From a bacterium (GTDB taxonomy: Bacteria; Patescibacteriota; Dojkabacteria; SC72; JAFGCJ01), in the NCBI GenBank assembly GCA_043816465.1, contig JBDRHV010000058.1, positions 1-27,186 of the forward strand: a stretch of 27,186 nt of DNA, written 5' to 3'. Under the pieces are notes generated by a model. That model saw only the letters and a program-made list of their open reading frames with translations, did no database searches and was not told where the DNA came from. The number at the start of each line of letters is the position of its first letter. The stretch's first letter is position 1. Positions 2,544 through 25,265 of this stretch are shown piece after piece. The position numbers were made by a program, and so were the translations under genes.

Positions 2544-3478
2544 TCCAGTACGTACACATCTACATAACTTCCATAACTGACTTTTCCATACCAGTCTTCT
2601 ATCTTATCAAAACCAAGATCGATTCTATTTCCTTTGACCGCTCCTCCAATATCTTCAGCGCGAGCGCTTCCATATCCTGGCACATACAGATGTGTGCCAA
2701 GTGGGATTACTGTAGGATCTACTGCTACCATCCCTTTTTCAAGGATTTTTCCTGTGTATGTGTGACCGGTACATCCTGTACAGTATCTGTCGTATGATGT
2801 TGCCCTCATTCCTTCTATTACCCTCCAGTATGTAATTTCTACTCCGCCGATTACAGTAGTTTTATAAACCTTCTTTGTCCCGATTGATACAATCTCGTTT
2901 TCTGAAGGCAACGTAATAATTTCATTAACCAATTTCTTTCCCATGAGAAGATCGTTGATATAAAGGTATTCATAAACCATTTTTTTCTGTCCAATTACCC
3001 CAGGTTTTGTGACACTCCTTACTCCCCATTCAAGGTTATCATCCTTCCTTTCTTCAGTTTCAAAAGAAATATACTCGTACTCTGTGTGGTTTTTTCTTAC
3101 AACTTCATCGACCCTTATTGAGGTGAAAACTCCCAGAATATAGTTTCCGTCTGGGTGTAGTTGGGTAATACTAGAAATTTCTATTCCAAAATCTCTGACT
3201 GCTTCCTCTACGGTATTAGAATATGTTATTCCTTTATACAGACTATCTTTATATCTAATCTCTACACTTTTGGGTTTGAAAATAGAGGTAGCTTTTGGCC
3301 TATTGGGAATCACATTTACTATTGTTACGTCATTCTCTATCCCTAGAACTCTTCCTTCTGTAGGGGATTGAGCAAGTGCAAATTTGGATAAACCACCTGA
3401 TGCAAGTAAGCTTAATCCAACAGCAGAAAATAGGGTAAAAACTCTTCTGAATAATCTTCCTTTTTGCTTCGAACCCAT
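2540..3478 (-). CDS. YabE-like exported cell-wall protein: signal/TM segment, DUF348-like repeat, G5 domain and C-terminal 3D (MltA-like) domain
   Basis: Hydrophobic N-terminus; G5-like EERKDDNLEWG..VTKPGVIG..K...EIVSIGTK; 3D signature RATSY...VAVDPTVIPLGT.LYVPGYG.ARAEDIGGAVKGNRIDL. Confidence 0.85.
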   Translation of the reverse strand: MGSKQKGRLFRRVFTLFSAVGLSLLASGGLSKFALAQSPTEGRVLGIENDVTIVNVIPNRPKATSIFKPKSVEIRYKDSLYKGITYSNTVEEAVRDFGIEISSITQLHPDGNYILGVFTSIRVDEVVRKNHTEYEYISFETEERKDDNLEWGVRSVTKPGVIGQKKMVYEYLYINDLLMGKKLVNEIITLPSENEIVSIGTKKVYKTTVIGGVEITYWRVIEGMRATSYDRYCTGCTGHTYTGKILEKGMVAVDPTVIPLGTHLYVPGYGSARAEDIGGAVKGNRIDLGFDKIEDWYGKVSYGSYVDVYVLD

Positions 3479-9126: not shown

Positions 9127-9157
9127 TGGTTTTGCTCCGCCATAGGCGGGTGGACCA
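9127..9157 (+). repeat. GC-rich intergenic hairpin containing a half-copy of the 30-bp palindromic element
   Basis: TGGTT..TCCGCC ATA GGCGGG..GACCA; 9136-9150 matches TCCGCC NNN GGCGGA apart from the last base. Confidence 0.6.
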
Positions 9158-11934: not shown

Positions 11935-12357
11935 ATGAAAGAAAAAGTGAAAGATACAAATAAAAAAATACAAAAGAATACAGAAGTTGAGAAATCCGCC
12001 AAAGTTGGATCCGACTCTGTAGGAAGAAAGGTAATTGCACGTTACGGTGATGCAAACTCCTCTCCTCAAAAAATGAGACTCGTTGCAGCTCTAATAAGGA
12101 GAAAAGATGCAGTAGAAGCTGTTAATATACTGACATTCACAAGCAAGAAGGCAGCGAAAACTTTACTTAAAGTTCTGAAATCTGCAATCGCGAATGCCGA
12201 CAACAGATATAGCATAAGCCCAGAAAAGCTTGTCGTGTCTGGTGTAGATATTGGTGAGGGTGTAAAATTGCCCCGATTCAGATTTGCATCAAGAGGAAGA
12301 ATAAGCAAACTAATGAAGAGAAGATCGCTAATTAAAATTGAATTGACCGAAAAATAA
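11935..12357 (+). CDS. rplV: 50S ribosomal protein L22 (uL22) with a ~30-aa N-terminal extension
   Basis: ARY...SPQKMRLVA.LIR.K...EA..IL.F..KKAA..L.KVLKSA.ANA, RGR...L.KR.S.I.I; canonical position. Confidence 0.95.
   Translation: MKEKVKDTNKKIQKNTEVEKSAKVGSDSVGRKVIARYGDANSSPQKMRLVAALIRRKDAVEAVNILTFTSKKAAKTLLKVLKSAIANADNRYSISPEKLVVSGVDIGEGVKLPRFRFASRGRISKLMKRRSLIKIELTEK
11995..12024 (+). repeat. 30-bp palindromic element, in-frame copy in rplV (SAKVGSDSVG)
   Basis: TCCGCC AAA GTTGGA TCCGAC TCT GTAGGA, 25/30 identical to the consensus. Confidence 0.8.
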
Positions 12358-12358
12358 C

Positions 12359-13015
12359 ATGGGACAGAAAATAAGTGCAACAGCTATGAGACTAGGAATC
12401 AAAGGTACTTGGAAGTCTCTTTGGTATGCAAAAGGACAAAATTATACGGATCAGCTTCATCAGGATATCGCTATCCGTGAATACATGACAAAGAAACTAA
12501 GTTCTGCTGGTCTTGAAAAGGTTGAAATTAGTAGATCAATGAATGATGTTACTGTAAATGCATATGTTGCAAGACCTGGTGTTGCTATTGGAAGAGGTGG
12601 AAAAGGAATAGATGAAATCAAAAAAGAGTTAACAAAGAAGTACAAAGTACCTATTGAAATCAAGATAAACGAATTGAAGAAGGCTAATCTTTCAGCAAGA
12701 GTTATAGCAAGGTCAATCGCAGATGGAATTGAGAAAAGAATGGCACCAAAGAAATTGATGGAAACAGAAAAAGAAAAAGCAGTTCAGGCTGGGGCAAAGG
12801 GTGTAAAAATTATGATATCAGGAAGAATTGGTGGAAGTGATATTGCTCGATCTATCAAGGCGCAGGAGGGACCGGTTCCTCTACAGACATTGAGAGCTGA
12901 TATCGATTTTGCGGAAGAAGTAGCAGCTACGACAAATGCAGGTTTGTATGGAGTGAAGGTGTGGGTATACAGAGAAGATGAAAAAGAATCAGATAAATCA
13001 AATAGAAGCGAATAA
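12359..13015 (+). CDS. rpsC: 30S ribosomal protein S3 (uS3)
   Basis: MGQK....MRLGI...W.S.WY, ARPGVAIGRGG, GAKGVKI.ISGRIGG.DIARS, GPVPLQTLRADIDF, GVKVWVY. Confidence 0.97.
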   Translation: MGQKISATAMRLGIKGTWKSLWYAKGQNYTDQLHQDIAIREYMTKKLSSAGLEKVEISRSMNDVTVNAYVARPGVAIGRGGKGIDEIKKELTKKYKVPIEIKINELKKANLSARVIARSIADGIEKRMAPKKLMETEKEKAVQAGAKGVKIMISGRIGGSDIARSIKAQEGPVPLQTLRADIDFAEEVAATTNAGLYGVKVWVYREDEKESDKSNRSE

Positions 13016-13425
13016 TGCTAGAACCAAAAAACGCAAAATATAGAAAACAGTTTAGAGGAAAGATGAAAGGCATCTCTTTCGGAGCGAGTAAAATCGACTT
13101 TGGAGAGTATGGACTTCAATCAAAAGAGTGTGGTTGGGTGTCTGCTGGTCAAATTGAGGCAGCAAGAAGAGCAATTACTGGGAGTATAAAGAGAAAAGGA
13201 AAAATTTGGGTCAGGGTTTTTCCTGATAAACCAGTAACAAAAAAGCCTGCAGAAGTGAAAATGGGTTCTGGAAAAGGTGATATTGATAGGTATGTCGCGG
13301 TTGTTAGACCTGGAAGAATATTGTTCGAATTGGGTGGTGTAGAAGAGGACATTGCTAGAGAAGCGTTCAGATTGGCAGCACATAAACTGTCAGTAGAAAC
13401 TAGATTTTTGAAGAGGATGGACTAA
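13015..13425 (+). CDS. rplP: 50S ribosomal protein L16 (uL16)
   Basis: MLEPK..KYRKQFRG, QIEAARRAI, GKIWVRVFPDKPVTKKPAEV.MGSGKG, AFRLAAHKL. Confidence 0.97.
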   Translation: MLEPKNAKYRKQFRGKMKGISFGASKIDFGEYGLQSKECGWVSAGQIEAARRAITGSIKRKGKIWVRVFPDKPVTKKPAEVKMGSGKGDIDRYVAVVRPGRILFELGGVEEDIAREAFRLAAHKLSVETRFLKRMD

Positions 13426-13686
13426 ATGAATATTAAACAAATAAGAGAAAAGAAAATAGAAGAGCTATATAAACAAAGAACTGAAGTAAGAAGAAGATAC
13501 TCAGATGAATGTTTGGAGATGAGAATGGGAAAACTGAAAGATGTAAGAAAACCTAATAAGACAAGAAAAGAATTAGCTAGATTGGAATTTGTTATTGCAG
13601 AAAAAGCTTCACCAAAGGCGAGTTCGCCTAGGGTGAATAAAGATAAGTTGAGTAAAAAATCAAAAGATGGCAAAGCAAAGGCTTAA
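13426..13686 (+). CDS. rpmC: 50S ribosomal protein L29 (uL29) with a C-terminal extension
   Basis: IR.K..EEL........L..R.G.L......KTRKELAR...VI.EK; located between rplP and rpsQ. Confidence 0.9.
   Translation: MNIKQIREKKIEELYKQRTEVRRRYSDECLEMRMGKLKDVRKPNKTRKELARLEFVIAEKASPKASSPRVNKDKLSKKSKDGKAKA
13608..13637 (+). repeat. 30-bp palindromic element, copy in rpmC read in a different frame (SPKASSPRV)
   Basis: TTCACC AAA GGCGAG TTCGCC TAG GGTGAA, 21/30 identical to the consensus; outer 6-bp arms are perfectly complementary. Confidence 0.7.
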
Positions 13687-13930
13687 CGGAAAAGTAATAA
13701 GCAACAAAATGGAGAAAACAGTGGTAGTTGCGGTTGAAAGAAAAACTGCACATCCTAAGTATAAAAAGACAATTGTCAGAAGGAAAAGATATTTTGCACA
13801 TAGTGAAAACGATATTGAGATAGGAAAATCTGTTACAATCGAGCTCTCGAAGCCAATGTCAAAGCATAAGAGATGGAAGGTTATATTGGTGGAAAATGGA
13901 GAGAATAAAACTAAGTCTAAGAAGAAATAA
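13667..13930 (+). CDS. rpsQ: 30S ribosomal protein S17 (uS17)
   Basis: L.GKVISNKMEKTVVVAVER...HPKYKK...R.K.Y.AH, I..SKPMSK.KRW. Confidence 0.96.
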   Translation: MAKQRLNGKVISNKMEKTVVVAVERKTAHPKYKKTIVRRKRYFAHSENDIEIGKSVTIELSKPMSKHKRWKVILVENGENKTKSKKK

Positions 13931-13932
13931 CA

Positions 13933-14304
13933 ATGTTAAGAATAGGTGCGAGAGTAAAAATTACAGACAATACAGGAGGAAGAATAGGTAAAATCATTGG
14001 TGTACCTGGAAGTTCAAGGGAAAGGGTCGCAAAACTTGGAAGTGTAGTGAGGGTAAGTATTACAAAGGCAAACCCTTATGGTCTTGTAAAAGAGCATGGT
14101 AAGGAAAGAGCTGTTGTAGTAAGGACAAGAAAAGAATACAGGAGAAGAGATGGTTCATACATAAGATTTGATGATAATGCGGCTGTAGTACTTGGCTCAG
14201 ACGGAAAAACTCCAAAGGGTACAAGAGTGTTTGGTCCAATTGCTCGAGAGCTTAAGGAAAATGGTTACGATAAAATTGTTTCTTTAGCACCAGAAGTAAT
14301 ATGA
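13933..14304 (+). CDS. rplN: 50S ribosomal protein L14 (uL14)
   Basis: DNTGG, AVVVRTRKEYRR.DGSYIRFDDNAAV, PKGTRVFGPIARELK...Y.KIVSLAPEVI. Confidence 0.97.
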   Translation: MLRIGARVKITDNTGGRIGKIIGVPGSSRERVAKLGSVVRVSITKANPYGLVKEHGKERAVVVRTRKEYRRRDGSYIRFDDNAAVVLGSDGKTPKGTRVFGPIARELKENGYDKIVSLAPEVI

Positions 14305-14696
14305 AGATTAAAAAAGGAGATACAGTAAGAATAATGAAGGGTAAGGATGTTGGAAAACAAGGGAAAGTACTGAAGATCGTTTCGGGAGATAAAAGAGTTG
14401 TTGTAGAGGGAGTAAATGTTTTTAAAAAGCACATAAAGGGGGACGGTAAAAATAAGGAGTCTGCTATTGTAGATATTGTAAAACCAGTATCTATAGCAAA
14501 TGTCATGATTGTATGTAACTCCTGCGGAAAGGCATCAAGAGTAAGAATAAGTGTAGTAAAAGATAAACGAATCAGAATGTGTGTTAAATGTGATAAACCA
14601 ATGGATGTTGTTGCGAAAAAAGAGAAAAAAGAAGTCAAATCAGGTACAACAAAATCAAAAAAAGTAAATTCTAAAGCTAAAAAATCGAAGAAATAG
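14301..14696 (+). CDS. rplX: 50S ribosomal protein L24 (uL24) with a Lys-rich C-terminal tail
   Basis: MKIKKGDTVRIMKGKDVGKQGKV, V.VEGVN..KKH.K, ....SIANVMI.C..CGK.SRV. Confidence 0.96.
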   Translation: MKIKKGDTVRIMKGKDVGKQGKVLKIVSGDKRVVVEGVNVFKKHIKGDGKNKESAIVDIVKPVSIANVMIVCNSCGKASRVRISVVKDKRIRMCVKCDKPMDVVAKKEKKEVKSGTTKSKKVNSKAKKSKK

Positions 14697-14729
14697 ATCC
14701 TATCGTTCCTCTTTGAGGGACTCCAGGAT
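14697..14729 (+). repeat. GC-rich nested hairpin in the rplX-rplE spacer
   Basis: ATCCT-ATCG-TTCCTC TTT GAGGGA-CTCC-AGGAT: a 6-3-6 inner hairpin within a 5-bp outer stem. Confidence 0.5.
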
Positions 14730-14750
14730 GTACGAGAATAAACAATTACC

Positions 14751-15314
14751 ATGAAAGAATTACCAAGACTTAAAAAAGAATATGTAGAAAAGTACAGAGA
14801 TGAGCTGAAGAAAGAGCTTAAGCTAGACAATATTATGGAAGTTCCAATGTTTAATAAGATTGTCTTGAACGTTGGGATGGGAGAGGCTCTTGAAAACAAA
14901 GATGCAATTGAGGATATGACTAAGCAGTTTGAATTGATTACTGGACAAAAGCCTGTTGTAAAGAAAGCAAAAAAAGCTATTTCGGGATTCAAGATTAGAA
15001 AGGGTGAAGAGATTGGATTATCTGTCACTTTGAGAGGTGATAGGATGTGGCATTTTCTTGATAGATTGATAAATATTGCTTTTCCAAGGACAAAAGACTT
15101 TAGAGGAATGCCCGTAAGTTCTTTTGATGGTAGCGGTAACTATACAATTGGAATCAGGGAGCAAACATCTTTTCCAGAGATTGATCCAAACGAGATCACA
15201 AAACTTAGAGGTATGGAGATTACTATTGTTACATCAACAATTAATGATATTCATGCAAAAGCATTACTAGATAAATTTGGTTTTCCATTTAAGAAGGATG
15301 GCAAAGAAGTCTAA
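14751..15314 (+). CDS. rplE: 50S ribosomal protein L5 (uL5)
   Basis: NIMEVP...[17 protein letters not shown]...[44 protein letters not shown]. Confidence 0.97.
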
Positions 15315-15492
15315 AGTAGCACAACAAAAGAGGCTAAAACTGTACTCAAAGTACATAACAAGGAAGTACACAAGATGTATGAGATGTGGACGTCCAAGGG
15401 CTTATATGAGAAAATTCGGCCTGTGCAGAATTTGTTTTAGGCAATTAGCCCATAAGGGTGAGATTCCAGGTTTAGTTAAATCAAGCTGGTAA
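15298..15492 (+). CDS. rpsN: 30S ribosomal protein S14, zinc-binding (type Z); start moved to ATG 15298
   Basis: MAKKSK...[33 protein letters not shown] (four Cys). Confidence 0.96.
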
Positions 15493-15497
15493 AGTAT

Positions 15498-15872
15498 ATG
15501 GATACAGTGTCAAATGCGCTATCAAAAATTAAAAACGCAAGTATGGCTGGGAAAAAAGAGGTTCAGTTGAAAAAGAGCAACCAGGTCTCTAGTATTGCAA
15601 AGATTCTTAAAGAAGAAGGATTTATCGATGGATATTCTGAAAACGGTAATGTCATAGATGTTACTTTGGGATTCATCGGAAAGGAACCAAAGATAACTCA
15701 TTTTGAAAAGGTATCAAACCCGGGACAGAGATCATATATCTCTGTAAACAATTTGAGGCCTGTTCTAAATGGAAGAGGAATCGGGATTGTTAGCACATCA
15801 AAAGGTATTATGACGGTCGAGAGGGCAAAGGTGGAAAATATCGGAGGAGAATATATTTGTAAAATTTGGTAA
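15498..15872 (+). CDS. rpsH: 30S ribosomal protein S8 (uS8)
   Basis: MD.....L.KIKNA, IAKILKEEGFI, VSNPGQRSY, V.NGRGIGIVSTSKGIMT...A....IGGE.IC.IW. Confidence 0.96.
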   Translation: MDTVSNALSKIKNASMAGKKEVQLKKSNQVSSIAKILKEEGFIDGYSENGNVIDVTLGFIGKEPKITHFEKVSNPGQRSYISVNNLRPVLNGRGIGIVSTSKGIMTVERAKVENIGGEYICKIW

Positions 15873-15874
15873 AT

Positions 15875-16426
15875 ATGTCAAGAATTGGAATTCAACCAAT
15901 CAAAATTGAAGAAGGTGTAACGGTAGAGGTAGCTGATGATACAGTTAAAGTTAAGGGTCCCCTAGGGGAGCTTGAAAAGAGTTTACCAAGAAAAATTGAA
16001 GTCAAAGTAACAGGGGGTGAAGTTATTGTTGAAAGAAAAGGTGAGACAAAGCAGGACAAATCGAATCATGGAACAATTAGATCAATAATCTCGAATATGA
16101 TAAATGGTGTAAAAGAAGGTTATAAAAAAGAGTTGGAGCTAGTAGGAATGGGGTATAGAGCTGAAATGCAGGGAAGAGATTTAGTTATGTATATTGGGTG
16201 GAATCATCCAGTAAAAGTGTCCCCACCAGAAGATATTACTATTGAGGTCAAAGACCAGTCTTTTGTAGAAATTTCTGGCGCAGATAAACAAAAAGTTGGC
16301 CTTTGGGCTGCAAATATTAGGAAGATTAGAAAACCTGAACCTTACAAAGGAAAAGGAATTAAATACGTTGAAGAGATAGTTAGAAGAAAGACAAGTAAGT
16401 CTGTTAAGGAGGAATCAAATGCTTAA
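15875..16426 (+). CDS. rplF: 50S ribosomal protein L6 (uL6); start at ATG 15875
   Basis: MSRIGIQPI.I..GV, VKGPLGEL, HGTIRS.I.NMI.GV..GY.K.LELVG.GYRA, IRK.RKPEPYKGKGI.Y. Confidence 0.97.
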   Translation: MSRIGIQPIKIEEGVTVEVADDTVKVKGPLGELEKSLPRKIEVKVTGGEVIVERKGETKQDKSNHGTIRSIISNMINGVKEGYKKELELVGMGYRAEMQGRDLVMYIGWNHPVKVSPPEDITIEVKDQSFVEISGADKQKVGLWAANIRKIRKPEPYKGKGIKYVEEIVRRKTSKSVKEESNA

Positions 16427-16772
16427 AACAAGAAGAGAAAAAAGACAAAGAAGAAAATTGCATGTAAGGAAAAACCTTTCTGGTACAAAGGATATTCCAA
16501 GAATAAATGTATTCAGAAGCAATAGGTTTATCTATGTGCAGGCGGTAGATGATGAAGCCGGTAAATCGATGTGGGGTATGGGTTCAATGAAAATCAAGTC
16601 AGCAAAGGCAGATAAGCCAGTGGAAGTGGCTGCAAAGTTGGGAGAAGAATTCTCGACAATATTAAAGAAAAACAAGATTGAAAGAGCGGTGTTTGATAGA
16701 TCTGGTTATAAGTATCATGGGAGAGTTAAGGCTCTAGCGGATGGAATCAGAAAAGGTGGAATTAATTTATAA
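16419..16772 (+). CDS. rplR: 50S ribosomal protein L18 (uL18)
   Basis: R.RR..HVRK.L.GT...PRINVFRSN..IY.Q..DD, VFDRSGYKYHGRVKALADG.R.GG..L. Confidence 0.97.
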   Translation: MLKTRREKRQRRKLHVRKNLSGTKDIPRINVFRSNRFIYVQAVDDEAGKSMWGMGSMKIKSAKADKPVEVAAKLGEEFSTILKKNKIERAVFDRSGYKYHGRVKALADGIRKGGINL

Positions 16773-16783
16773 AAATTTATTAA

Positions 16784-17344
16784 GTGGAGAGAGATTTTAT
16801 AGAAAGACCAATAGAAGATTTTGATAAAAGGGTTGTATCTGTAAGAAGAGTTGCCAAGGTTAGAGCAGGCTCAAAAAGACTTAGGTTTAGCGCTCTTGTT
16901 ATAGCCGGAAATAAAAAAGGAAAACTAGGAATCGGACTTGGAAGAGGTCAGGATACAAGAAGTGCAATAGAGAAAGGGTTTAAATATGCAAAATCTCATT
17001 CTGTGAGGGTTGAAATTACTGGAGATACTATTCCACACGAGGTGGTGAATAAGTTCCGAGCAGCTAAGTTGATTTTGAAACCTGCTGGGCCAGGTACGGG
17101 TCTTATTGCAAGCTCTTCTGTAAGGGCAGTACTTGAACTTGCAGGTCTTAAGAATGTACTTTCAAAACAGTTAGGTGCATCAAACGAAGTGACAAATGCA
17201 TATTGTGCATTTGAGTCCTTGAAATTATTAAGAAGAGACAGAGTTTTACAGAGAAGAGCAAGGATAACAAGAGATACAAAAAAGAGTAATACTTCAAAAT
17301 TAAGTAAAGATGAAGCTAAACGAAATACCACAAAGAAAAAATAG
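16784..17344 (+). CDS. rpsE: 30S ribosomal protein S5 (uS5), GTG start, Lys-rich C-terminal tail
   Basis: VRRVAKV..G.KRLRFSALV..GN..G..G.G.G, TIPHEV..KF.AA.L.LKPA.PGTG.IA...VRAVLELAG. Confidence 0.96.
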   Translation: MERDFIERPIEDFDKRVVSVRRVAKVRAGSKRLRFSALVIAGNKKGKLGIGLGRGQDTRSAIEKGFKYAKSHSVRVEITGDTIPHEVVNKFRAAKLILKPAGPGTGLIASSSVRAVLELAGLKNVLSKQLGASNEVTNAYCAFESLKLLRRDRVLQRRARITRDTKKSNTSKLSKDEAKRNTTKKK

Positions 17345-17747
17345 AATAATGAAAGCAAAGAGAATTGGTAGAGGATATGGATCCGGGAAAGGTGGTCATA
17401 CCGTTGGAAAGGGTCAGAAAGGACAGAAATCAAGATCAGGTGGAAAGACAAAACTTGGTTTTGAAGGAGGAAAAGTACCTTTGTTCAGAAAATTACCAAA
17501 ATTCAGAGGATTTAGGAATCCAACCAGGGTTGAATATCAGGTGATAAACTTTGCTGATTTGGAAAAGAACTTCAAAATAGGAGAAGAAGTATCAGTGAAG
17601 ATCTTGAGAGAAAAGGGTATGATTAGGAAGAAGACAAAGGATGTAAAAATTCTTGGTAAGGGTAAATTAACAAAGAAATTGAAGTTTAAAGACGTAAAGA
17701 TATCTGCAAAGGCAAATATAGAGGTCGAGAAGTTAAATAAGAAGTAG
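17310..17747 (+). CDS. rplO: 50S ribosomal protein L15 (uL15)
   Basis: MKLNE, KRIGRGYGSGKGGHT.GKGQKGQKSRSG, GFEGG..PL.RKLPK.RGF, VKILGKG.L. Confidence 0.97.
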   Translation: MKLNEIPQRKNRIMKAKRIGRGYGSGKGGHTVGKGQKGQKSRSGGKTKLGFEGGKVPLFRKLPKFRGFRNPTRVEYQVINFADLEKNFKIGEEVSVKILREKGMIRKKTKDVKILGKGKLTKKLKFKDVKISAKANIEVEKLNKK

Positions 17748-17751
17748 TTTT

Positions 17752-19029
17752 ATGGCAAGTCTGACTGAGATCAGAAATAAATTAAGTCAGATAGTTAAGA
17801 ATAAGGAGATAAGGGATAAGGTTCTATTCTCTCTGATGATCCTTGTTGTTTTCAGGTTTATGGCTTCAGTTCCAGTGCCAGGTCTTCCTGAAAATGCTCT
17901 TACAAGATTTTTTGGAGATAGCGGTTTTGGTGAAGTTCTTACTTTGGTATCTGGTGGAGTACTCGAAAATGCAACTATTGTAGCTATTGGTTTGGGTCCT
18001 TATATCAATGCTTCTATCATATTTCAATTATTAGGCTCGGTTATTCCTAAGATTGAGGAGCTTCAAAAAGAAGGAGAGCAAGGAAGAAGAGTTATCAGTA
18101 TGTACACAAGACTTCTTTCTGTCCCTTTGTCAGTTCTTCAGTCATTTGTTATATATTCAGTGCTTCAGCAGTATGGGATAATGGATAAACTGGTGGGTTG
18201 GGATCTTGTAAATCTTATTGCAACACTATCTTCAGGTGCAGTCATAATGATGTGGATGGGTGAGTTGATATCTGATATGGGAGTGGGGAACGGGTCTTCC
18301 TTCCTTATTATGGCAGGTATTTTGGCAGGTATTCCCGGTAGCTTAAAGACTAATCTCGATATTGTTGACTCTAGAAGCAATTGGATTTTACTTTTTGCAT
18401 CTCTCATACTTGTTCTAGTCATTGTGATTGTAAATGTGGCAGAGAGAAAGGTCAAAATTCAATATGCCAGAAGAGTGAGGTCAACAGGTGCGTCGGCAGA
18501 AAGCTTTATTCCATTGAAGATAAATCAGTCTGGAGTAATGCCAGTTATCTTTGCACTTTCGATGTTATCTTTCCCTCAGCTAATCGGAAAATTATTGGTT
18601 GGTGATAAGATACCGGAATTCATTAAAAATACATCAAATTGGTTGGTAACTCAGCTCAACGAACCTACCATATACAACGCAATGCTTGCAGTAATGATAA
18701 TCTTTTTCTCCATTTTTTACACTTTTGTTGTATTTAATCCTGTTAATATTGCAGAAAATCTACAAAAGCAGGGGGCATTTATCCCTGGAATTCGTCCAGG
18801 GAAAGAGACAGAGAGGTACATCTCGAAAGCCGCTCTAAGATTGAGTATATTTGGATCGGTATTTTTGGCTGTTATTGCTATTCTTCCTACGATTGCGCAG
18901 AATTTAGGCCTTATTTCAAGTTCTATAATCAGTGGTACCGGATTACTTATTGTTATTGGGGTTTTGTTGGATTCAAAGAGACAAATTGAATCTCTAATTG
19001 TCACAAGAAGTTATGAAAGCTATCTGTAA
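17752..19029 (+). CDS. secY: Preprotein translocase subunit SecY
   Basis: About ten hydrophobic segments; IVAIGLGPYINASIIFQLL, GE.GRR.I..YTR, GVGNG.S.LI.AGI, LK.NQSGVMPVIFA, GAFIPGIRPG.ET..Y, GTGLLIVIGV.LD. Confidence 0.97.
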   Translation: MASLTEIRNKLSQIVKNKEIRDKVLFSLMILVVFRFMASVPVPGLPENALTRFFGDSGFGEVLTLVSGGVLENATIVAIGLGPYINASIIFQLLGSVIPKIEELQKEGEQGRRVISMYTRLLSVPLSVLQSFVIYSVLQQYGIMDKLVGWDLVNLIATLSSGAVIMMWMGELISDMGVGNGSSFLIMAGILAGIPGSLKTNLDIVDSRSNWILLFASLILVLVIVIVNVAERKVKIQYARRVRSTGASAESFIPLKINQSGVMPVIFALSMLSFPQLIGKLLVGDKIPEFIKNTSNWLVTQLNEPTIYNAMLAVMIIFFSIFYTFVVFNPVNIAENLQKQGAFIPGIRPGKETERYISKAALRLSIFGSVFLAVIAILPTIAQNLGLISSSIISGTGLLIVIGVLLDSKRQIESLIVTRSYESYL

Positions 19030-19690
19030 AAAAATCCCTAGAACACTACTTTTCCTCGGTTTAGCTGGGTCTGGAAAGAGTACTCAAGCAGATTTGATAT
19101 GTAATCCTTGTGAGGGTGAAAATATTTCTACTGGTGATCTTGCTAGAAATGAAAGGAAGAATAAAACCAAGCTTGGGAAAATGGCTGATAAATATATGGA
19201 AAAAGGACTTCTTATTCCTGATAAGGTTATCCATAAGATATTGAGAGCTCAACTCACAAAATTTAACCGGAAAAAACTTTGGGCGTTTACAGGGACAGTA
19301 AGAACAACAAACCAAATACCTATGTTCGATGAAACATTGGCTGTATTTAATCGTGAACTTGATAAAGTTGTTTTTCTTGAATTGACTGATGAGTCAATTA
19401 TTAACAGGCTTTCTAAGAGAAGGTTCTGTCCAAAATGTAATACTAATTACCATCCAGATTATAAGAAGAGTAAAAAAGATGGAATTTGTGATAAAGATGA
19501 AGAAAAATTAATTCAAAGGGAAGATGATAAGCCCGATATTATAAGAACTAGAATCGAAGTTGAGAGAAAGGTTATAGAGCCTGTTCTTTCAGAATATGAA
19601 AGAAGGGGTATATTACTAAGAATCAACGGAGAACCATCGATTGAGGAAATCCATAAAGTATTAGTAAAAAGGCTGGCAGATGAAGGTTAA
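19013..19690 (+). CDS. adk: Adenylate kinase (Zn-type LID), divergent; likely start ATG 19013
   Basis: P-loop GLAGSGKST, ISTGDLAR, G.LIPD, LID RR.CPKC...YH.......G.CDKD...L.QREDD; located directly after secY. Confidence 0.9.
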   Translation: MKAICKKIPRTLLFLGLAGSGKSTQADLICNPCEGENISTGDLARNERKNKTKLGKMADKYMEKGLLIPDKVIHKILRAQLTKFNRKKLWAFTGTVRTTNQIPMFDETLAVFNRELDKVVFLELTDESIINRLSKRRFCPKCNTNYHPDYKKSKKDGICDKDEEKLIQREDDKPDIIRTRIEVERKVIEPVLSEYERRGILLRINGEPSIEEIHKVLVKRLADEG

Positions 19691-20417
19691 AGAGAGAGTA
19701 GAAAAGATGACTGAGGGCGGAAAAATCATTGTTGAGATAATGAAAGAGATTATTTCTCACGTAGAGCCCGGTGTGACCACCCTTCAACTCGATAGACTCT
19801 CAGAGTCGTTATGCTCCAAATATGGCGTAAAACCAGCATTTAAGGGGTATGAGGGCTTTCCAAACACCCTCTGTGTTGGTCCAAACGATACAGTTGTTCA
19901 TGGTATTCCAGATGATATTCCTCTTGAGGAAGGAGATATTTTAAGCCTGGATGTGGGAATTGTCTACAAAAAGGTTTATTTGGATATGGCAAGGACAGTG
20001 GGGGTGGGAAAGGTGTCAAAACAAGCAGAAAAATTCATGGAAGTATGTGAATTAGCGTTAAAAAAAGCCTGTTCTGTGGCCGTTCCAGGAAATCGGGTGG
20101 GAGATATTAGCTTTGAGATTCAATCTTATGCAGAAAGTCATGGATATTCTGTTGTGAGAGAGATGGTAGGTCATAGTGTGGGTGAGAGACTTCATGAAGA
20201 GCCAATGATACCGGGAGTTGGTAGTCCAAATACAGGGGAACTGCTATATGATGGGCAGACTATAGCAATAGAAGCTATTTTTAATATGGGTGGTCCAGAG
20301 ATCTCAATATCTAGGAAAGACGGCTGGACAAGTAAAACCAAAGATGGTAGTCTCTCAGCTCTGTTCGAAAATACGGTAGTTGTGGCTGAAGAACCGAAGA
20401 TTTTAACCCTTTTATAA
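19680..20417 (+). CDS. map: Methionine aminopeptidase, type I
   Basis: PGVTT..LD, PAFKGY.GFP...C...ND.VVHGIP, GDI.SLDVG....Y.DMART, GHSVG..LHEEP, AIE, SALFENT. Confidence 0.95.
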   Translation: MKVKERVEKMTEGGKIIVEIMKEIISHVEPGVTTLQLDRLSESLCSKYGVKPAFKGYEGFPNTLCVGPNDTVVHGIPDDIPLEEGDILSLDVGIVYKKVYLDMARTVGVGKVSKQAEKFMEVCELALKKACSVAVPGNRVGDISFEIQSYAESHGYSVVREMVGHSVGERLHEEPMIPGVGSPNTGELLYDGQTIAIEAIFNMGGPEISISRKDGWTSKTKDGSLSALFENTVVVAEEPKILTLL

Positions 20418-20446
20418 TTGCATAATCAACGTCTGTTTGTTATAAT
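20418..20446 (+). promoter_or_regulatory. sigma70-type promoter for the infA-rpmJ-alpha cluster
   Basis: TTGCAT (20418-20423), 17 nt spacer, extended -10 TG-T-TATAAT (20438-20446). Confidence 0.75.
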
Positions 20447-20482
20447 GCGCCGTGCTAATAGGGTATTTTGTTATTTCTACAT

Positions 20483-20728
20483 ATGGATCAGAATAATCCT
20501 GATCAAAGTAATAAAAAGTTTGAAGTTGAAGGTGTTGTGGAGGAATGCCTTCCTAATGCTAAATTTAACATCAGCATTGAGGTTGGAGAGAAAACACACA
20601 ACATTCAGGGTCATCTTTCGGGAAAAATGAGGATGAATTACATCAGAATCATGAAAGGTGATAAGGTAAAGGTGGAAATTAGCCCTTACGATCCAACAAA
20701 AGGTCGTATTACATATAGATATAAGTAA
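20483..20728 (+). CDS. infA: Translation initiation factor IF-1; likely start ATG 20483
   Basis: [50 protein letters not shown]. Confidence 0.96.
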
Positions 20729-20736
20729 AAACTCAG

Positions 20737-20850
20737 ATGAAAGTTAGAGCTTCAGTAAAAAAAAGATGTGAGCACTGTTATGTCGTAAGAAGAAAAAGTA
20801 GGATCTACGTTTACTGTAAGAAAAATCCTAAACATAAACAAAGACAGTAA
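20737..20850 (+). CDS. rpmJ: 50S ribosomal protein L36 (bL36), Zn-ribbon form; not in the ORF track
   Basis: Translated by hand: [37 protein letters not shown] (37 aa). Confidence 0.97.
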
Positions 20851-20872
20851 TATAACATTTTAAGTTATTGAA

Positions 20873-21253
20873 TTGGCAAGGTTCGTAGGAGTAGAAATAC
20901 CAGATGAAAAGAAAGTGAAAGTCTCATTGACCTACATTCATGGTATTGGAGATTCAACTTCTCTCGAAATATTAAAAAGGGCAACAGTTGATCCAGAAAA
21001 AAGACTAAAGGAAATAACTGGTGCAGAAGAGACTAGATTGAGGGAAATATTAGAGAAGATGACTCTTGAAGGTGAACTTAGGCAAACAAAGTTTAGAAAT
21101 ATAAAGAGACTTCAGGATATTAAGAGTTACAGGGGAATAAGGCATAAGGTCGGACTTCCTGTGAGAGGTCAAAGGACAAGACACAATGCACATACAAGGA
21201 AGGGAAAGAACCAGCCGGTAGGTGGACTTAAGAGAATTCTTGAAAAGACTTAA
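20873..21253 (+). CDS. rpsM: 30S ribosomal protein S13 (uS13), TTG start
   Basis: ARFVGVEIP..K.V..SLTYIHGIG, LEGELR......NIKRL.DI.SYRG.RH..GLPVRGQRTR.NA.TRKG. Confidence 0.97.
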   Translation: MARFVGVEIPDEKKVKVSLTYIHGIGDSTSLEILKRATVDPEKRLKEITGAEETRLREILEKMTLEGELRQTKFRNIKRLQDIKSYRGIRHKVGLPVRGQRTRHNAHTRKGKNQPVGGLKRILEKT

Positions 21254-21279
21254 AATATATCTAGATATATCTTTTACAG

Positions 21280-21741
21280 ATGGCTAAAAAAACAGAAAAA
21301 TCAAAATCAAAGATTGAGAATCCAGCCAAAGGCGAATCCGCCTCTGACGAAAAGAAGGTGGTAAAACCCATTAAGAAGTCGAAATCCAAGAAAAATTCTC
21401 CTCAGTGCAATGTATTTGTAGATGCAAGTTTCAACAACACAATTGTTACTATCACAGATCCCGAAGGTAACACGTTATCCTCTAGCTCTGCTGGAGTGGT
21501 AGGATTTAGGGGTGCAAAGAAAAGCACAGCATTTGCTGCAACAAAAGCAGCACAGGATGCGGTAAATAAAGCTATGAAATATGGAATTCAAGAAGCTAAG
21601 GTATATATCAAAGGTCCAGGATCTGGTAGAAATGCTGCTGTGAAGGGTTTGGATTCTTCTGGATTAAGAATATCTTTACTTTCGGATATTACTTCTCTTC
21701 CATTCAACGGTTGCAGACCAAGGAAGAAACCAAGAAATTAG
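21280..21741 (+). CDS. rpsK: 30S ribosomal protein S11 (uS11) with an extended N-terminus
   Basis: ASFNNTIVTITDP.GN.LS.SSAG.VGFRG.KKST.FAA..AA, KGPGSGR.AA, D.T..P.NGCRP.K. Confidence 0.97.
   Translation: MAKKTEKSKSKIENPAKGESASDEKKVVKPIKKSKSKKNSPQCNVFVDASFNNTIVTITDPEGNTLSSSSAGVVGFRGAKKSTAFAATKAAQDAVNKAMKYGIQEAKVYIKGPGSGRNAAVKGLDSSGLRISLLSDITSLPFNGCRPRKKPRN
21322..21351 (+). repeat. 30-bp palindromic element, in-frame copy in rpsK (PAKGESASDE)
   Basis: CCAGCC AAA GGCGAA TCCGCC TCT GACGAA, 25/30 identical to the consensus. Confidence 0.8.
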
Positions 21742-21758
21742 ATTTTACTAGTATATTT

Positions 21759-22359
21759 ATGTCTAGAATTACTGAGGATAAATGCAAATTGTGTAGAAGA
21801 GAACAGATGAAACTTTACCTTAAAGGGGAGAAGTGTTATACGGATAAGTGTCCTGTTACCCGAAGGCAAAATCTTCCTGGTAAAACCTCATTTTTTCATT
21901 CTAGACTTTCAAATTATGGAATTCAGCTTCGAGAAAAACAGAAAGTTAAAAGAGTTTATGGTCTAAACGAAACCCAAATGAAGAATATTTATAATGAAGC
22001 TTCTTCATCTGGTGGTGATAAAGGACTAAAAATTCTTCAGCTTCTCGAACTTAGACTTGATAATGTGGCACATCTTTTGGGGCTTGCTCCTTCAAGATCT
22101 GCAGCTAGACAACTTGTAAATCATGGGAAGGTATTAGTAAATGGGAAAAAATTAGATATTGCTTCATATCGTGTCTCTGTCGGGGATAAAATTGAGCTTA
22201 AGGAAATGGACAAAAAAATCTCCTATTCCTTCACACATCAAGACACCTGCATGGCTCAAAAGGTCAGCAAAAGGTGGAGAAGTAGTAGAGATTCCAGACA
22301 GAAATATGATGGATGAAGAAATAAAAGAGAACCTAATTATTGAGTTCTATTCTAAGTAA
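21759..22359 (+). CDS. rpsD: 30S ribosomal protein S4 (uS4), split by a +1 frameshift near the A7 run at 22212-22218
   Basis: First frame: CKLCRRE..KLYLKG.KC, YG.QLREKQKVKR.YG, LE.RLDNV...G.A.SR..ARQLV.HG...VNG...DI.SY.V. Shifted frame: P.WL...P.R.......I.E.LI.EFYSK*. Removing one base gives 199 aa. Confidence 0.93.
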
Positions 22360-22379
22360 TAATTTTTTATAAAAAGAAG

Positions 22380-23321
22380 ATGATAGATTTTTCAGACCTA
22401 AATGTGGAAGTAGTTGAGAATGATGGAAGTAAGGGAGTATTCAAGATTGGACCTTTACCAAAAGGCTTTGGTAATACACTTGCAAACTCTTTAAGAAGAG
22501 TACTTCTTTCATCTCTGGAAGGATCGGGTGTTACAAGTATTAAGATTTCTGGGGTTGATCATGAATACAGCACAATCGAAGGAGTCAAGGAGACCGTAAT
22601 TGAGATTCTTTTGAATCTTAAGAATGTCAGATTTCAGTGTGATAGCAATGATCCTCAGATAGTCAAGGTGTCCGTAAAGGGACCTGCAGATGTCAAAGCT
22701 GGAGATTTCGATGTTACCGAATCTGTAATAGTAATGAATCCTAAGGCTGTAGTTGCAACCGTTACAGGAAAAGGCACAAAGTTTGATATGGAGATGACGG
22801 TTGAAAGAGGAATTGGCTACCAGCTTGGTGATGAAGAGGTGAGATCTGAAGTAGGTAGGCTTCCTGTAGATACAAAGTTTAGTCCTGTGGAGAGGGTAAT
22901 GTACAAAGTTGATGAAGCCAGAAAAGGTGGAAGGATCGATTTTGATCTTATCACTATTTCAGTTTTCACTGACGGTTCTATTGATCCAAAGGATGCGATT
23001 ATTAAATCTTCAAATATTCTTATGGATTTGACCGAGAGGGTTGTCGCTATTTCAGGAGGCAAGGCTGAGGTAAAGAAAGAGAAATCTAACAAAAAGAAGA
23101 AATCAGCGGATAAGTCTAAAGAGGAAGGAAAGGTATTGATTGGAGATATAGAACTTTCGACAAGGACAAAATCAGCTTTAGTAAATGCAGGAATCGATAC
23201 GGTGGAAAATTTGACTTCAAAGACAGAAGATGAAGTTAAAGATATCAAAGGTTTTGGAACGAAAGCTTTTGACGAGGTGACAGACTATCTTAAATCTAAT
23301 AAGTTGGAGCTAAAGAAATAG
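22380..23321 (+). CDS. rpoA: RNA polymerase subunit alpha
   Basis: PL.KGFGNTL.NSLRRVLLSSL.G..VT.IKI.GV.HEYSTI.GVKE.V.EI.LNLK, VERG.GY, D..FSPV.RV, L..R...AL..AGI......L, I.GFG.K...E. Confidence 0.97.
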   Translation: MIDFSDLNVEVVENDGSKGVFKIGPLPKGFGNTLANSLRRVLLSSLEGSGVTSIKISGVDHEYSTIEGVKETVIEILLNLKNVRFQCDSNDPQIVKVSVKGPADVKAGDFDVTESVIVMNPKAVVATVTGKGTKFDMEMTVERGIGYQLGDEEVRSEVGRLPVDTKFSPVERVMYKVDEARKGGRIDFDLITISVFTDGSIDPKDAIIKSSNILMDLTERVVAISGGKAEVKKEKSNKKKKSADKSKEEGKVLIGDIELSTRTKSALVNAGIDTVENLTSKTEDEVKDIKGFGTKAFDEVTDYLKSNKLELKK

Positions 23322-23327
23322 TACAAG

Positions 23328-23981
23328 ATGAGAAAGATGGTAAAGAAACAAAAGTTAAACGTGAAAACTTCTCATAGTGGATTGATGCTTAGAAATCTTT
23401 TCGAGTCACTTCTCACATATGGAAAAGTTGAGACAACTCAGAGTAAAGCAAAAATCCTAAGAAGTTATACAGATGTAAAACTCAATAGCATTCTAAATTC
23501 AAAAGCAGATAAGGTTGATAATTCTATTGTTAAAAAGCTAGGATCTGTAAGGGAGGCGGAAAAGGTAATGAAATTTGTATTATTTCTTAGAAAGCAAGGA
23601 AAAGAAACAAACTCTGGTTTCACTACTATGGTAAGGACGAAATATAGAGTGGGTGACAATTCGTTGATGATTGAGGTAAGACTTTTTGGTTTTGACGATT
23701 TCTTGAAAGCTCAGAAACCACTCAAGAAAGCTACAACAAAAGTCAAAAAGGAAGAAAAGAAAATAGTTAAGTCCGCCAAAGGCGGATCTGCCTATGGCAG
23801 AAAGGCTCAAAAGAAAGACAGAACAGTTGTACCAAAGAAAGAGTCCAAAGCTCCTGAGATAAAAGAGCACGAAAAAGAAGAAGGATTTTTCACAAAGTTG
23901 GGTGAAAGATTTTTGGGAAGAAAATCTGCAGGTCCTGTGATTGAAAGAAAAGGAAGAGCAAGCTCAAGATCTGGAATATAA
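23328..23981 (+). CDS. rplQ: 50S ribosomal protein L17 (bL17) with a ~95-aa C-terminal extension
   Basis: KL....SH...MLRNL..SL..YGKVETT..KAK.LR, SGFT...R...R.GDN..M..V.L; canonical position after rpoA. Confidence 0.92.
   Translation: MRKMVKKQKLNVKTSHSGLMLRNLFESLLTYGKVETTQSKAKILRSYTDVKLNSILNSKADKVDNSIVKKLGSVREAEKVMKFVLFLRKQGKETNSGFTTMVRTKYRVGDNSLMIEVRLFGFDDFLKAQKPLKKATTKVKKEEKKIVKSAKGGSAYGRKAQKKDRTVVPKKESKAPEIKEHEKEEGFFTKLGERFLGRKSAGPVIERKGRASSRSGI
23772..23801 (+). repeat. 30-bp palindromic element, best-conserved in-frame copy in rplQ (SAKGGSAYGR)
   Basis: TCCGCC AAA GGCGGA TCTGCC TAT GGCAGA: two perfect tandem 6-3-6 hairpins, 27/30 identical to the consensus. Confidence 0.9.
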
Positions 23982-24886: not shown

Positions 24887-25265
24887 GCTGGACTAAGTAT
24901 TACAGATGATCGCCATGAACCTTACGTGGTTCATGGAGGAAAGTCCGGACTCCATGTTGCTCCGACTAATCGGAGTAGGTGCCTGTGAAAGCAGGAAGGG
25001 AGTGATCTTTTGGATAAAAGGGCAACAGAAAGCAAACCTCCGCCTTTGGCGGAAAGGGTGAAAAGGTGGTGTAAGAGACCACCGGCTCTGACAGTAATGA
25101 AAGAGTGCGTGGTAACCCCCACTTGGAGCAAGGCCTAGTGCCGCATCCTACGTCGCGCTCACTTTGTATATTTGAGTTCGACTGTGGATCCGTTTTCACT
25201 TCGGTGAATGCGGGAGATAGATGGTCATCTAAACAGAATTCGGCTTATGTGGTGCTTAGTCCAGC
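24887..25265 (+). ncRNA. rnpB: RNase P RNA, bacterial type A (379 nt)
   Basis: 17-bp P1 (GCTGGACTAAGTATTAC / GTGGTGCTTAGTCCAGC, with GU pairs); GAGGAAAGTCCGG and ACAGAATTCGGCTTA (P4); GCAACAGAAAGCAAACC; AAGGGTGAAA; P13 GGTGGT-GTAAGAG-ACCACC; GGAGCAAGGCC. Confidence 0.97.
25039..25053 (+). repeat. Half-copy of the palindromic element forming RNase P helix P12
   Basis: TCCGCC TTT GGCGGA is the exact reverse complement of 23772-23786. Confidence 0.55.

Follow-up and report, generated by a model that had tools for sequence, protein, structure and literature searches.

The window analysed here, the whole stretch of 27,186 nucleotides of contig JBDRHV010000058.1 (positions 1 to 27,186, forward strand; GenBank assembly GCA_043816465.1), holds a ribosomal-protein operon in which four genes, rplV, rpmC, rpsK and rplQ, each contain one copy of a GC-rich 30-bp element within the coding sequence. 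These copies very probably belong to a real and mobile family of in-frame double-hairpin elements. The consensus of the element, TCCGCC-AAA-GGCGGA TCCGCC-TCT-GGCGGA, consists of two tandem hairpins, each with a 6-bp stem and a 3-nt loop. The window is contig C58 of a 751-kb assembly in 163 contigs (G000; C numbers denote its contigs), and the closest named homologues of the proteins of this genome are those of Candidatus Dojkabacteria and other Patescibacteria. The four copies, with their matches to the consensus, are the following.

11995..12024, + strand: rplV copy in the N-terminal extension of L22 (rplV 11935-12357, PF00237); 25/30, stems broken; read in phase 0 as SAKVGSDSVG
13608..13637, + strand: rpmC copy in the C-terminal tail of L29 (rpmC 13426-13686); 21/30; read as (A)SPKASSPRV
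21322..21351, + strand: rpsK copy in the N-terminal extension of S11 (rpsK 21280-21741); 25/30, hairpins partly eroded; read in phase 0 as PAKGESASDE
23772..23801, + strand: rplQ copy in the C-terminal Lys-rich tail of L17 (rplQ 23328-23981, PF01196); 27/30; read in phase 0 as SAKGGSAYGR

The initial annotation had reported four 30-mers at these positions, all in one orientation, with a consensus free of stop codons in six frames. These observations are borne out: the mismatches to its consensus (5 in rplV, 9 in rpmC, 5 in rpsK and 3 in rplQ) agree with its counts of 25/30, 21/30, 25/30 and 27/30, all four copies lie on the plus strand, which is the strand of the host genes, and direct reading confirms the six open frames as well as its three forward translations. 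Since that consensus had been derived from the same four copies, they were scored again with models blind to them. A covariance model built from 48 copies, all of them outside the window, recovers all four at full length and at the exact coordinates (window-level E-values), with 52.3 bits for rplQ (E=2.4e-9), 26.6 bits for rpsK (E=3.6e-4), 16.6 bits for rpmC (E=0.036) and 14.3 bits for rplV (E=0.1). With a hidden Markov model made from external copies, the genome-wide E-values are 3e-9, 9e-5, 1.5 and 6.5, respectively, and 100 shuffles of the window contained no 30-mer within 3 mismatches of the element. The rplQ and rpsK copies are secure on sequence alone, and the rpmC and rplV copies are marginal; the latter two are rescued by relatives, which show presence or absence of ten codons in the case of rpmC and decayed copies at the same position in the case of rplV. 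The rplQ copy is the best preserved of the four: both hairpins are intact, the stem of hairpin 2 is compensated (TCTGCC/GGCAGA), and the copy folds into two tandem hairpins with z=-5.2 as DNA. The rpmC copy is read in another phase than the other three (SPKASSPRV, that is, the PPKADPPLA frame), and alignment of the indel places the inserted block at 13606-13635. Enrichment of the element in the ribosomal-protein operon is not significant with the two strong copies (p=0.08), and p=0.002 is reached only when the two weak ones are counted.

Judged by comparison with orthologues, the four window copies are insertions of different ages, forming an age series in which the rplV copy is the oldest and most decayed. 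In rpsK, the relative L210 (a Logan contig), whose S11 is 87% identical, lacks exactly ten codons at the insert, and its junction AAG ATT GAA/GTA AAA AAG compares with AAG ATT GAG plus 30 nt in the window. In rpmC, genomes G001 and G003 are short by exactly ten codons and G002 by nine, with AEK/ASPKASSPRV/NKDKL in the window aligning to NEK/QKDKL, and the L212 organism retains a decayed ten-codon block at the same place. The rplQ segment is absent from 5/5 of the nearest L17 homologues and from L210; here the gap is not exactly ten codons, because the L17 tail has other indels. No clean empty site was found for rplV among the relatives compared. Relatives with 67-70% identical L22 hold decayed versions at the same N-terminal site (K-TSKGGSSPDG-KRK in L211, KTSKGGSSPDGK; KKGPSSGG-KR in L212), which points to an old insertion inherited by several lineages, and the rplV copy folds no better than shuffled sequence.

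The family extends well beyond the window. The 751-kb genome contains about 13 full copies, including a perfect consensus copy at C35:3903, and most of the copies in this genome are intragenic, with host genes encoding a VirB4/TraG ATPase, SSB, a nucleotidyltransferase, FtsH, a sortase, an ATP-grasp enzyme, leucyl-tRNA synthetase (LeuRS), S2 and SMC. Both expectations of the initial annotation, further copies genome-wide and orthologues that differ by exactly 30 bp, were thereby confirmed, the latter in rpsK, rpmC, LeuRS and the ATP-grasp gene. LeuRS and the ATP-grasp enzyme are longer by exactly ten codons than in every one of the 9-10 relatives used for comparison, among them G001 with 77-82% identity. 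At the ATP-grasp junction, CAA AAA/30 nt/AAT GAA in this genome corresponds to CAA AAA/AAT GAA in G001, so that no target was duplicated, apart from perhaps one base. Among further homologues of the ATP-grasp enzyme, 47/49 are fully gapped over the ten inserted residues. In its AlphaFold model (mean confidence, pLDDT, 86.5), the insert (residues 92-101) lies in coil between two strands, and residues 95-100 make up one of only two segments with pLDDT below 50; the SAKGGSASGG insert is thus predicted to form a disordered loop. One homologue of this host protein, P0022, carries another insert, some 14 residues long (GSYGSRSASSRKED), in nearly the same loop, which may have received insertions more than once. 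The copies at C48:3296-3325 (C48 ends at 3326) and C35:115 fall on or close to the ends of their contigs, which suggests that the repeat contributes to assembly breaks, and the C48 sortase gene carries additional degenerate copies at 2915-2967. No closer relatives were found among metagenome contigs.

Compensatory substitutions maintain the two-hairpin structure. Across 47 distinct copies, 96.8% of cells are paired in the tandem two-hairpin structure, and double-sided changes occur in 39 cells, against 8.6 +- 2.5 in shuffles (0/500 reach 39); in slid controls for the tandem fold, pairing collapses to 20-45%. Part of the covariation arises at the pattern-free positions 1-3 and 28-30 and is therefore not imposed by the search. 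In variant copies the stems are compensated even at the cost of a changed protein, for example in TCT GCC...GGC AGA (G to R), CCA GCC...GGC TGG (S to P, G to W), TCG GCC...GGC CGA and CTC GCC...GGC GAG. A nested long hairpin, with the outer arms paired to each other and likewise the inner arms, was rejected: its covariation is no better than that of shuffles, though the perfect consensus reaches its lowest energy in this fold. No match for the element was found in Rfam. The initial annotation had argued for common DNA ancestry and against protein convergence, and the additional copies, the 30-nt differences between filled and empty orthologues and the stem compensation that alters amino acids uphold a dispersed DNA element.

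The use of reading frames was analysed on 130 distinct copies from this genome, its relatives and other phyla, 43 of which lie securely inside open reading frames (ORFs) of >=200 aa. The initial annotation had supposed that insertion would be tolerated in any phase; instead, 38 of the 43 secure copies are in phase 0 (S-A-K/R-G-G-S-A-S-G-G), as are 29/31 of the copies inside long ORFs that are open in all six frames (p=3e-12 vs one third). Every copy with asymmetric loops (23/23) reads AAA...TCT (Lys...Ser) on the coding strand and not AGA...TTT (Arg...Phe), and in genomes G405 and G380 all copies examined in long ORFs (11/11) share strand and phase 0. Variants with GGC TGA, whose TGA would end translation in phase 0, nearly always lie in a different phase or not in a long ORF at all. 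The phase bias would mean either that selection spares only the Gly/Ser/Ala reading or that insertion is also strand-specific. From these frames we infer that the insert is translated and under selection; if only insertions that yield a Gly/Ser/Ala loop survived, this would account for the phase bias together with the exclusion of GGC-TGA variants from phase-0 coding positions.

The element is not confined to the lineage of its host. At <=3 mismatches it occurs in this genome and in 1/40 close relatives, and in a sample drawn evenly over the phylum it was found in 44/401 genomes with 1-19 strand hits each, the reversed-sequence control giving 0/401. A 24-nt degenerate pattern applied to one genome per GTDB species matched at least 113 stretches, where about 0.5 would be expected by chance (an estimate). 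The matches listed span many classes of the candidate phyla radiation as well as Omnitrophota, Ignavibacteriota, Elusimicrobia, Planctomycetota, Verrucomicrobiota, Zixibacteria, KSB1, Bacteroidota and others, and two of those in Ignavibacteriota lie on 1.6-Mb long-read contigs. Identical 30-mers occur in unrelated genes, in non-coding DNA and in tRNA, and the stem sequence is kept across distant phyla while the loops vary. Moreover, genomes tend to have variants of their own, for instance TCC as a loop sequence in G405 and, in G103 and G345, TCAGCC in hairpin 1, which points to amplification within each genome; TCCGCC, TCAGCC, CCAGCC and CCCGCC are among the hairpin types. In G220, nine identical copies (L181-L189) form the core of a larger structured repeat of ~130 nt, also present in L102. 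Its outer stem is TTGTAGCGG/CCGCTACAA, the double hairpin caps an arm CTAGGCTT/AAGCCTAG, and CGCGGG/CCCGC makes up a third hairpin; this repeat has no Rfam match, and the G220 copies probably multiplied together with it. A literature search on the motif, its peptides and related terms found no published description.

Around 81 copies from other phyla, TT precedes and AAA follows the element, and in this genome the 5' flank is A/G-rich (AAA/element/AA). In L083, from an Omnitrophota metagenome-assembled genome (MAG), with the element at 608-637, ARAGORN finds a tRNA-Val(GAC) only after removal of the 30-mer, so that the copy sits in the D-loop, between CAGTT and GGTT; a small GIY-YIG ORF lies immediately upstream. 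As a general habit, insertion into tRNA was rejected: only L083 restores an intact tRNA, and the other tRNA-like flanks are partial 5' fragments. In L144, the same 25 nt occur twice, side by side, once filled and once empty. Targeting of hairpin loops was likewise rejected as a rule, the flanks of the 81 copies pairing at 3.9 of 12 positions against 3.8 with shuffled partners, although a few copies do have self-pairing flanks. Neither was target-site duplication upheld: direct repeats of >=6 nt occur at 5/81 copies, at least two of which, by eye, are in tandem-repeat contexts (L075, L135), and the clean ATP-grasp junction has none. A phage or plasmid vector was also discarded, as 2 of 2.9 million viral contigs match and 0 cultured phages and 0 plasmids do. 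In the Ignavibacteria loci L076, L092 and L143, copies occupy apparently one loop (F/SAKGGSASGG/N/D...SSG(I/V)Y) near the C-terminus of large proteins; the host region is possibly a type IX secretion sorting domain, and these copies reflect either recurrent insertion or spread through domain duplication.

Among known systems, the Rickettsia palindromic elements (RPEs) resemble the element in residence. RPEs measure ~150 bp, form ten families, are restricted to Rickettsia, lie in-frame in unrelated and often essential genes, encode a conserved peptide compatible with fold and function, and have no transposase of their own (PMC10969869). The likeness drawn by the initial annotation to RPE-like in-frame residence holds, as shown by copies across unrelated genes and by the phase-0 bias: our element, too, is palindromic, in-frame in unrelated genes and encodes a conserved peptide. 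It differs in being exactly 30 bp long, five times shorter, and two-hairpin, a layout unlike theirs, in occurring in many phyla and in its Dojkabacteria-like host, a distinction drawn from descriptions of RPEs. Unlike RPEs, it reads as a Gly/Ser/Ala peptide in either orientation.

A second likeness is to the Ssn nucleases, which cut single-stranded DNA (ssDNA) beside a cognate hairpin repeat with a 3-nt loop that flanks their genes (Chenal et al. 2025, PMC11893778). Ssn are small single-domain GIY-YIG proteins (cd10448), and their SRM repeats number hundreds of copies and flank the nuclease gene in 71% of homologues; NTS/SsnA is described there as modulating transformation in Neisseria (PMC11893778). 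With the Ssn/NTS/SRM systems our element shares a short GC-rich hairpin with a 3-nt loop, dispersal and an association with small GIY-YIG genes, and the Ssn layout of repeat, gene and repeat is itself like that of an insertion sequence (IS). It differs in having no GTC tag, few copies, mostly inside genes, and a double hairpin, and the nucleases here are known as PF01541 matches only. The Ssn report makes no mention of Patescibacteria or tRNA and describes no in-frame intragenic copies (PMC11893778).

Doublets of repetitive extragenic palindromic (REP) sequences can form either a single long hairpin or a clover of two, and genes of REP-associated tyrosine transposases (RAYTs) characteristically adjoin their REPs (PMC3116915), which are described as carrying GTAG or CGTC tags (PMC3733652). 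The element is REP/REPIN-like in being a short GC-rich palindrome (20-40 bp) arranged as a doublet of two 15-nt hairpins, with a RAYT-like gene in the genome. However, REPs are extragenic by definition, whereas 43/130 copies here are securely inside ORFs of >=200 aa; neither GTAG nor CGTC occurs in the element consensus or in the flank logo TT/TCCGCC...GGCGGA/AAA, and no RAYT gene is flanked by the element. Unlike miniature inverted-repeat transposable elements (MITEs), which are IS-derived and of DDE type, the element shows no target-site duplication at the ATP-grasp junction. IS200/IS605-derived hairpin elements insert 3' of a set tetra- or pentanucleotide, without duplication and with a Y1 TnpA in the genome. 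The comparison with IS200/IS605 is mixed: there is no duplication, a 5' TT bias in other phyla stands beside an A/G-rich 5' flank here, and the co-occurrence with Y1 is weak. The GC clusters, double-hairpin elements and byps of fungal mitochondria are functional analogues, small GC-rich hairpins that spread in AT-rich genomes, also inside coding and RNA genes. These are organellar and of other sequences, and byps are skipped by the ribosome, whereas the strictly open frame and the phase bias of our element point to read-through translation. Finally, the small dispersed repeats (SDRs; Elhai et al. 2008) of ~20 bp are, according to papers citing that work, possibly mobile and reported only in Nostocaceae (PMC2884548, PMC5861425), and by those descriptions they share with our element a very small size and possible mobility.

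The overall best explanation, to which we assign a probability of about 75%, is a mobile 30-bp double-hairpin mini-element whose insert would be translated and whose hairpin would be recognised by a small Ssn-type GIY-YIG nuclease. The element arrives as exactly 30 nt, that is ten codons, without target-site duplication and at unrelated loci, and its copies occupy protein tails or a disordered loop. It would be recognised as a hairpin in ssDNA by a small stand-alone Ssn-type nuclease whose gene lies elsewhere in the genome, and cutting by the nuclease, followed by repair or copying, would spread it in a homing-like or IS-like manner.

The evidence for the enzyme is as follows. Genome counts for the element, Y1 and GIY-YIG were read by hand from result tables, and the statistics ignore the kinship of the genomes. 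Three ORFs of ~100 aa in this genome match GIY-YIG (PF01541), with small GIY-YIG proteins encoded at C49:1227-1520 and C3:731-1036, and the element-rich genomes without Y1, G405 and G380, have 8 and 4 small GIY-YIG ORFs, respectively. In the sample of 401 genomes, the small-nuclease profile matches 42/44 element-positive genomes (~5 copies each) and 242/357 element-negative ones (~2.3 each; Fisher p=2e-5, odds ratio 10). At the cross-phylum loci, 9/80 hold a small GIY-YIG ORF, which in 5/80 lies within 67 nt of the element (binomial p=3e-5 under a generous null), and 4/5 of these adjacent copies are copies with tRNA-fragment flanks. On either side of the C3 nuclease gene stand 6-3-6 hairpins, of which one, TCCGCCagaGGCGGA, is identical to a half-element, and the C137 nuclease gene has one 6-3-6 hairpin 17 nt upstream. 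By these gene counts and neighbourhoods, GIY-YIG nuclease genes fit the element better than RAYT/Y1 does, and a small GIY-YIG nuclease is a tentative candidate for its partner, at slightly under even odds.

Several points weigh against this explanation. The small GIY-YIG family occurs in 68% of element-negative genomes, so its presence behaves like a necessary condition for the element and not like a sufficient one; nor do kindred genomes count as independent. Two element-positive genomes (G044 and G053) have no match to the GIY-YIG profile; a full copy lies within 1.5 kb at only 3/15 nuclease loci, and no locus is tightly flanked. The consensus contains no GTC on either strand, which the published SRM pattern (HGTCWY...) needs (PMC11893778), and NCBIfam and PDB searches gave no specific family for these nucleases. 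Moreover, the G220 copies ride on the ~130-nt repeat, so that not every copy is an independent insertion, and translation of the insert is itself a deduction.

A second repeat family was noticed in this genome, in which a variable 6-3-6 hairpin with covarying arms (TCCGCC/GGCGGA, TTTGCC/GGCAAA or TCCACC/GGTGGA) stands between the conserved sequences GATAGATTCTAC...ATAGAAATAC. Its copies, which bracket the small GIY-YIG gene C3:731-1036, start at the following positions.

C3: 468, 620, 1159, 1207, 2569 and 4410
C108: 1743 and 1834
C119: 3502

The enzyme first proposed was another one. In that proposal, a REP/REPIN-like doublet would be mobilised in trans as ssDNA by a RAYT/IS200-type HUH Y1 transposase, which we consider unlikely. 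This genome does have four matches to Y1_Tnp. Their top-scoring family in NCBIfam is the REP-associated tyrosine transposase, but at 55-67 bits they stay under the family cut-off of 80 bits. Hairpin ends without target duplication are as in IS200/IS605, the covariation favours the two-hairpin clover that was proposed as the RAYT substrate for REPINs (PMC3116915), and Y1 is commoner in element-positive genomes (29/44 vs 152/357, p=0.003). However, within 1.2 kb around all four Y1 genes there is neither an element nor a shared flanking repeat, and none of them is on a contig with a copy, so that the check proposed by the initial annotation, for HUH/Y1 genes flanked by the motif, comes out at 0/4, unlike RAYTs beside their REPs (PMC3116915); the GTAG/CGTC tag is missing as well. 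Genomes G380 and G405 hold 9 and 14 strand hits, respectively, and no Y1 match, whereas the sister family f3 has Y1 in 15/19 genomes, the element in 0/19 and the small nuclease in 1/19. Of the REP/MITE-like element mobilised by HUH/RAYT, the mobile, RPE-like, in-frame part therefore stands, and the enzyme probably does not, given weak co-occurrence, no adjacency and multi-copy genomes devoid of Y1; the initial annotation was right in kind and probably wrong about the enzyme. One of the four RAYT-like Y1 genes (C53:8019-8345) has an in-frame TAG and is therefore probably a pseudogene; a RAYT-like protein is also encoded at C29:109-552.

It is also improbable, slightly more so than RAYT mobilisation, that the hairpins are kept as cis-elements for the host, for example as the recognition site of a nuclease with a modulating effect on DNA uptake or recombination, a role suggested for NTS/SsnA, which is described as modulating transformation in Neisseria (PMC11893778), or as mRNA structure. 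Conservation of stem sequence and structure across phyla and the link to Ssn-like nuclease genes would be in line with such a role, but copies are few (1-19 strand hits in a genome), occur patchily, in 11% of genomes, and lie at sites spread among unrelated proteins, the D-loop of a tRNA and fragments of tRNAs. The old copies in rplV and rpmC are degenerating in both sequence and folding, which speaks against selection acting on each copy. Spread without an enzyme, by hairpin-stalled replication and template switching between A/T-rich microhomologies together with recombination after DNA uptake, deserves still less credence: it would suit the A/T-rich flanks, the missing target duplication and the several copies in short tandem repeats, but it leaves unexplained both the letter-for-letter conservation of stems across distant phyla, with varying loops, and the adjacency to GIY-YIG genes. 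That there is no element at all, and that convergent Gly/Ser/Ala-rich linkers or chance resemblance were seen, has a negligible probability; two of the four window copies are marginal on sequence and Lys-rich tails are compositionally simple, but identical 30-mers in unrelated genes, non-coding DNA and tRNA, compensation that overrides the peptide, exact 30-nt indels and the reversed control (0/401) refute it.

If the mobile, translated mini-element is accepted, essential genes of the smallest bacterial genomes (ribosomal proteins, aminoacyl-tRNA synthetases, tRNAs) would be remodelled by a 30-bp unit common to at least a dozen phyla, and in-frame selfish DNA, known from Rickettsia, would come to include a much smaller element whose host range is much wider. 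Outside Proteobacteria, Ssn-type single-strand nucleases, too, would gain a candidate natural substrate. A bolder version, which we regard as speculative, is that a large clade of Ssn-like miniature GIY-YIG ssDNA nucleases, so far uncharacterised, has the double hairpin as its cognate site, which would make the element a phylum-crossing, nuclease-driven 'homing hairpin'. Were this true, the element would be among the smallest units of mobile DNA known, and its palindromic codon layout, giving a harmless Gly/Ser/Ala loop either way, would permit residence in essential genes, ribosomal proteins and tRNA loops. On the practical side, the element would account for odd 10-residue Gly/Ser/Ala inserts in proteins of MAGs, filled and empty sites could date lineages, and the pair of nuclease and hairpin may be of service in handling ssDNA, a use suggested in the Ssn paper for the enzymes described there (PMC11893778).

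Two further hairpins in the window concern the half-unit of the element. At 9136-9154, between rpsJ and rplC, lies a lone hairpin CTCCGCC-ATA-GGCGGG (model E ~0.04-0.1), which a half-element or an ordinary leader hairpin could fit. The gene for a bacterial class A RNase P RNA (24894-25262, + strand; 168 bits) contains a native helix, CC-TCCGCC-TTT-GGCGGA-AAGG at 25037-25057, which matches the half-element exactly and aligns to the Rfam consensus helix. Because the 15-nt unit at 25039 is this native helix, single half-units are unreliable and were not counted, and the helix is possibly a hint at the origin of the hairpin sequence.

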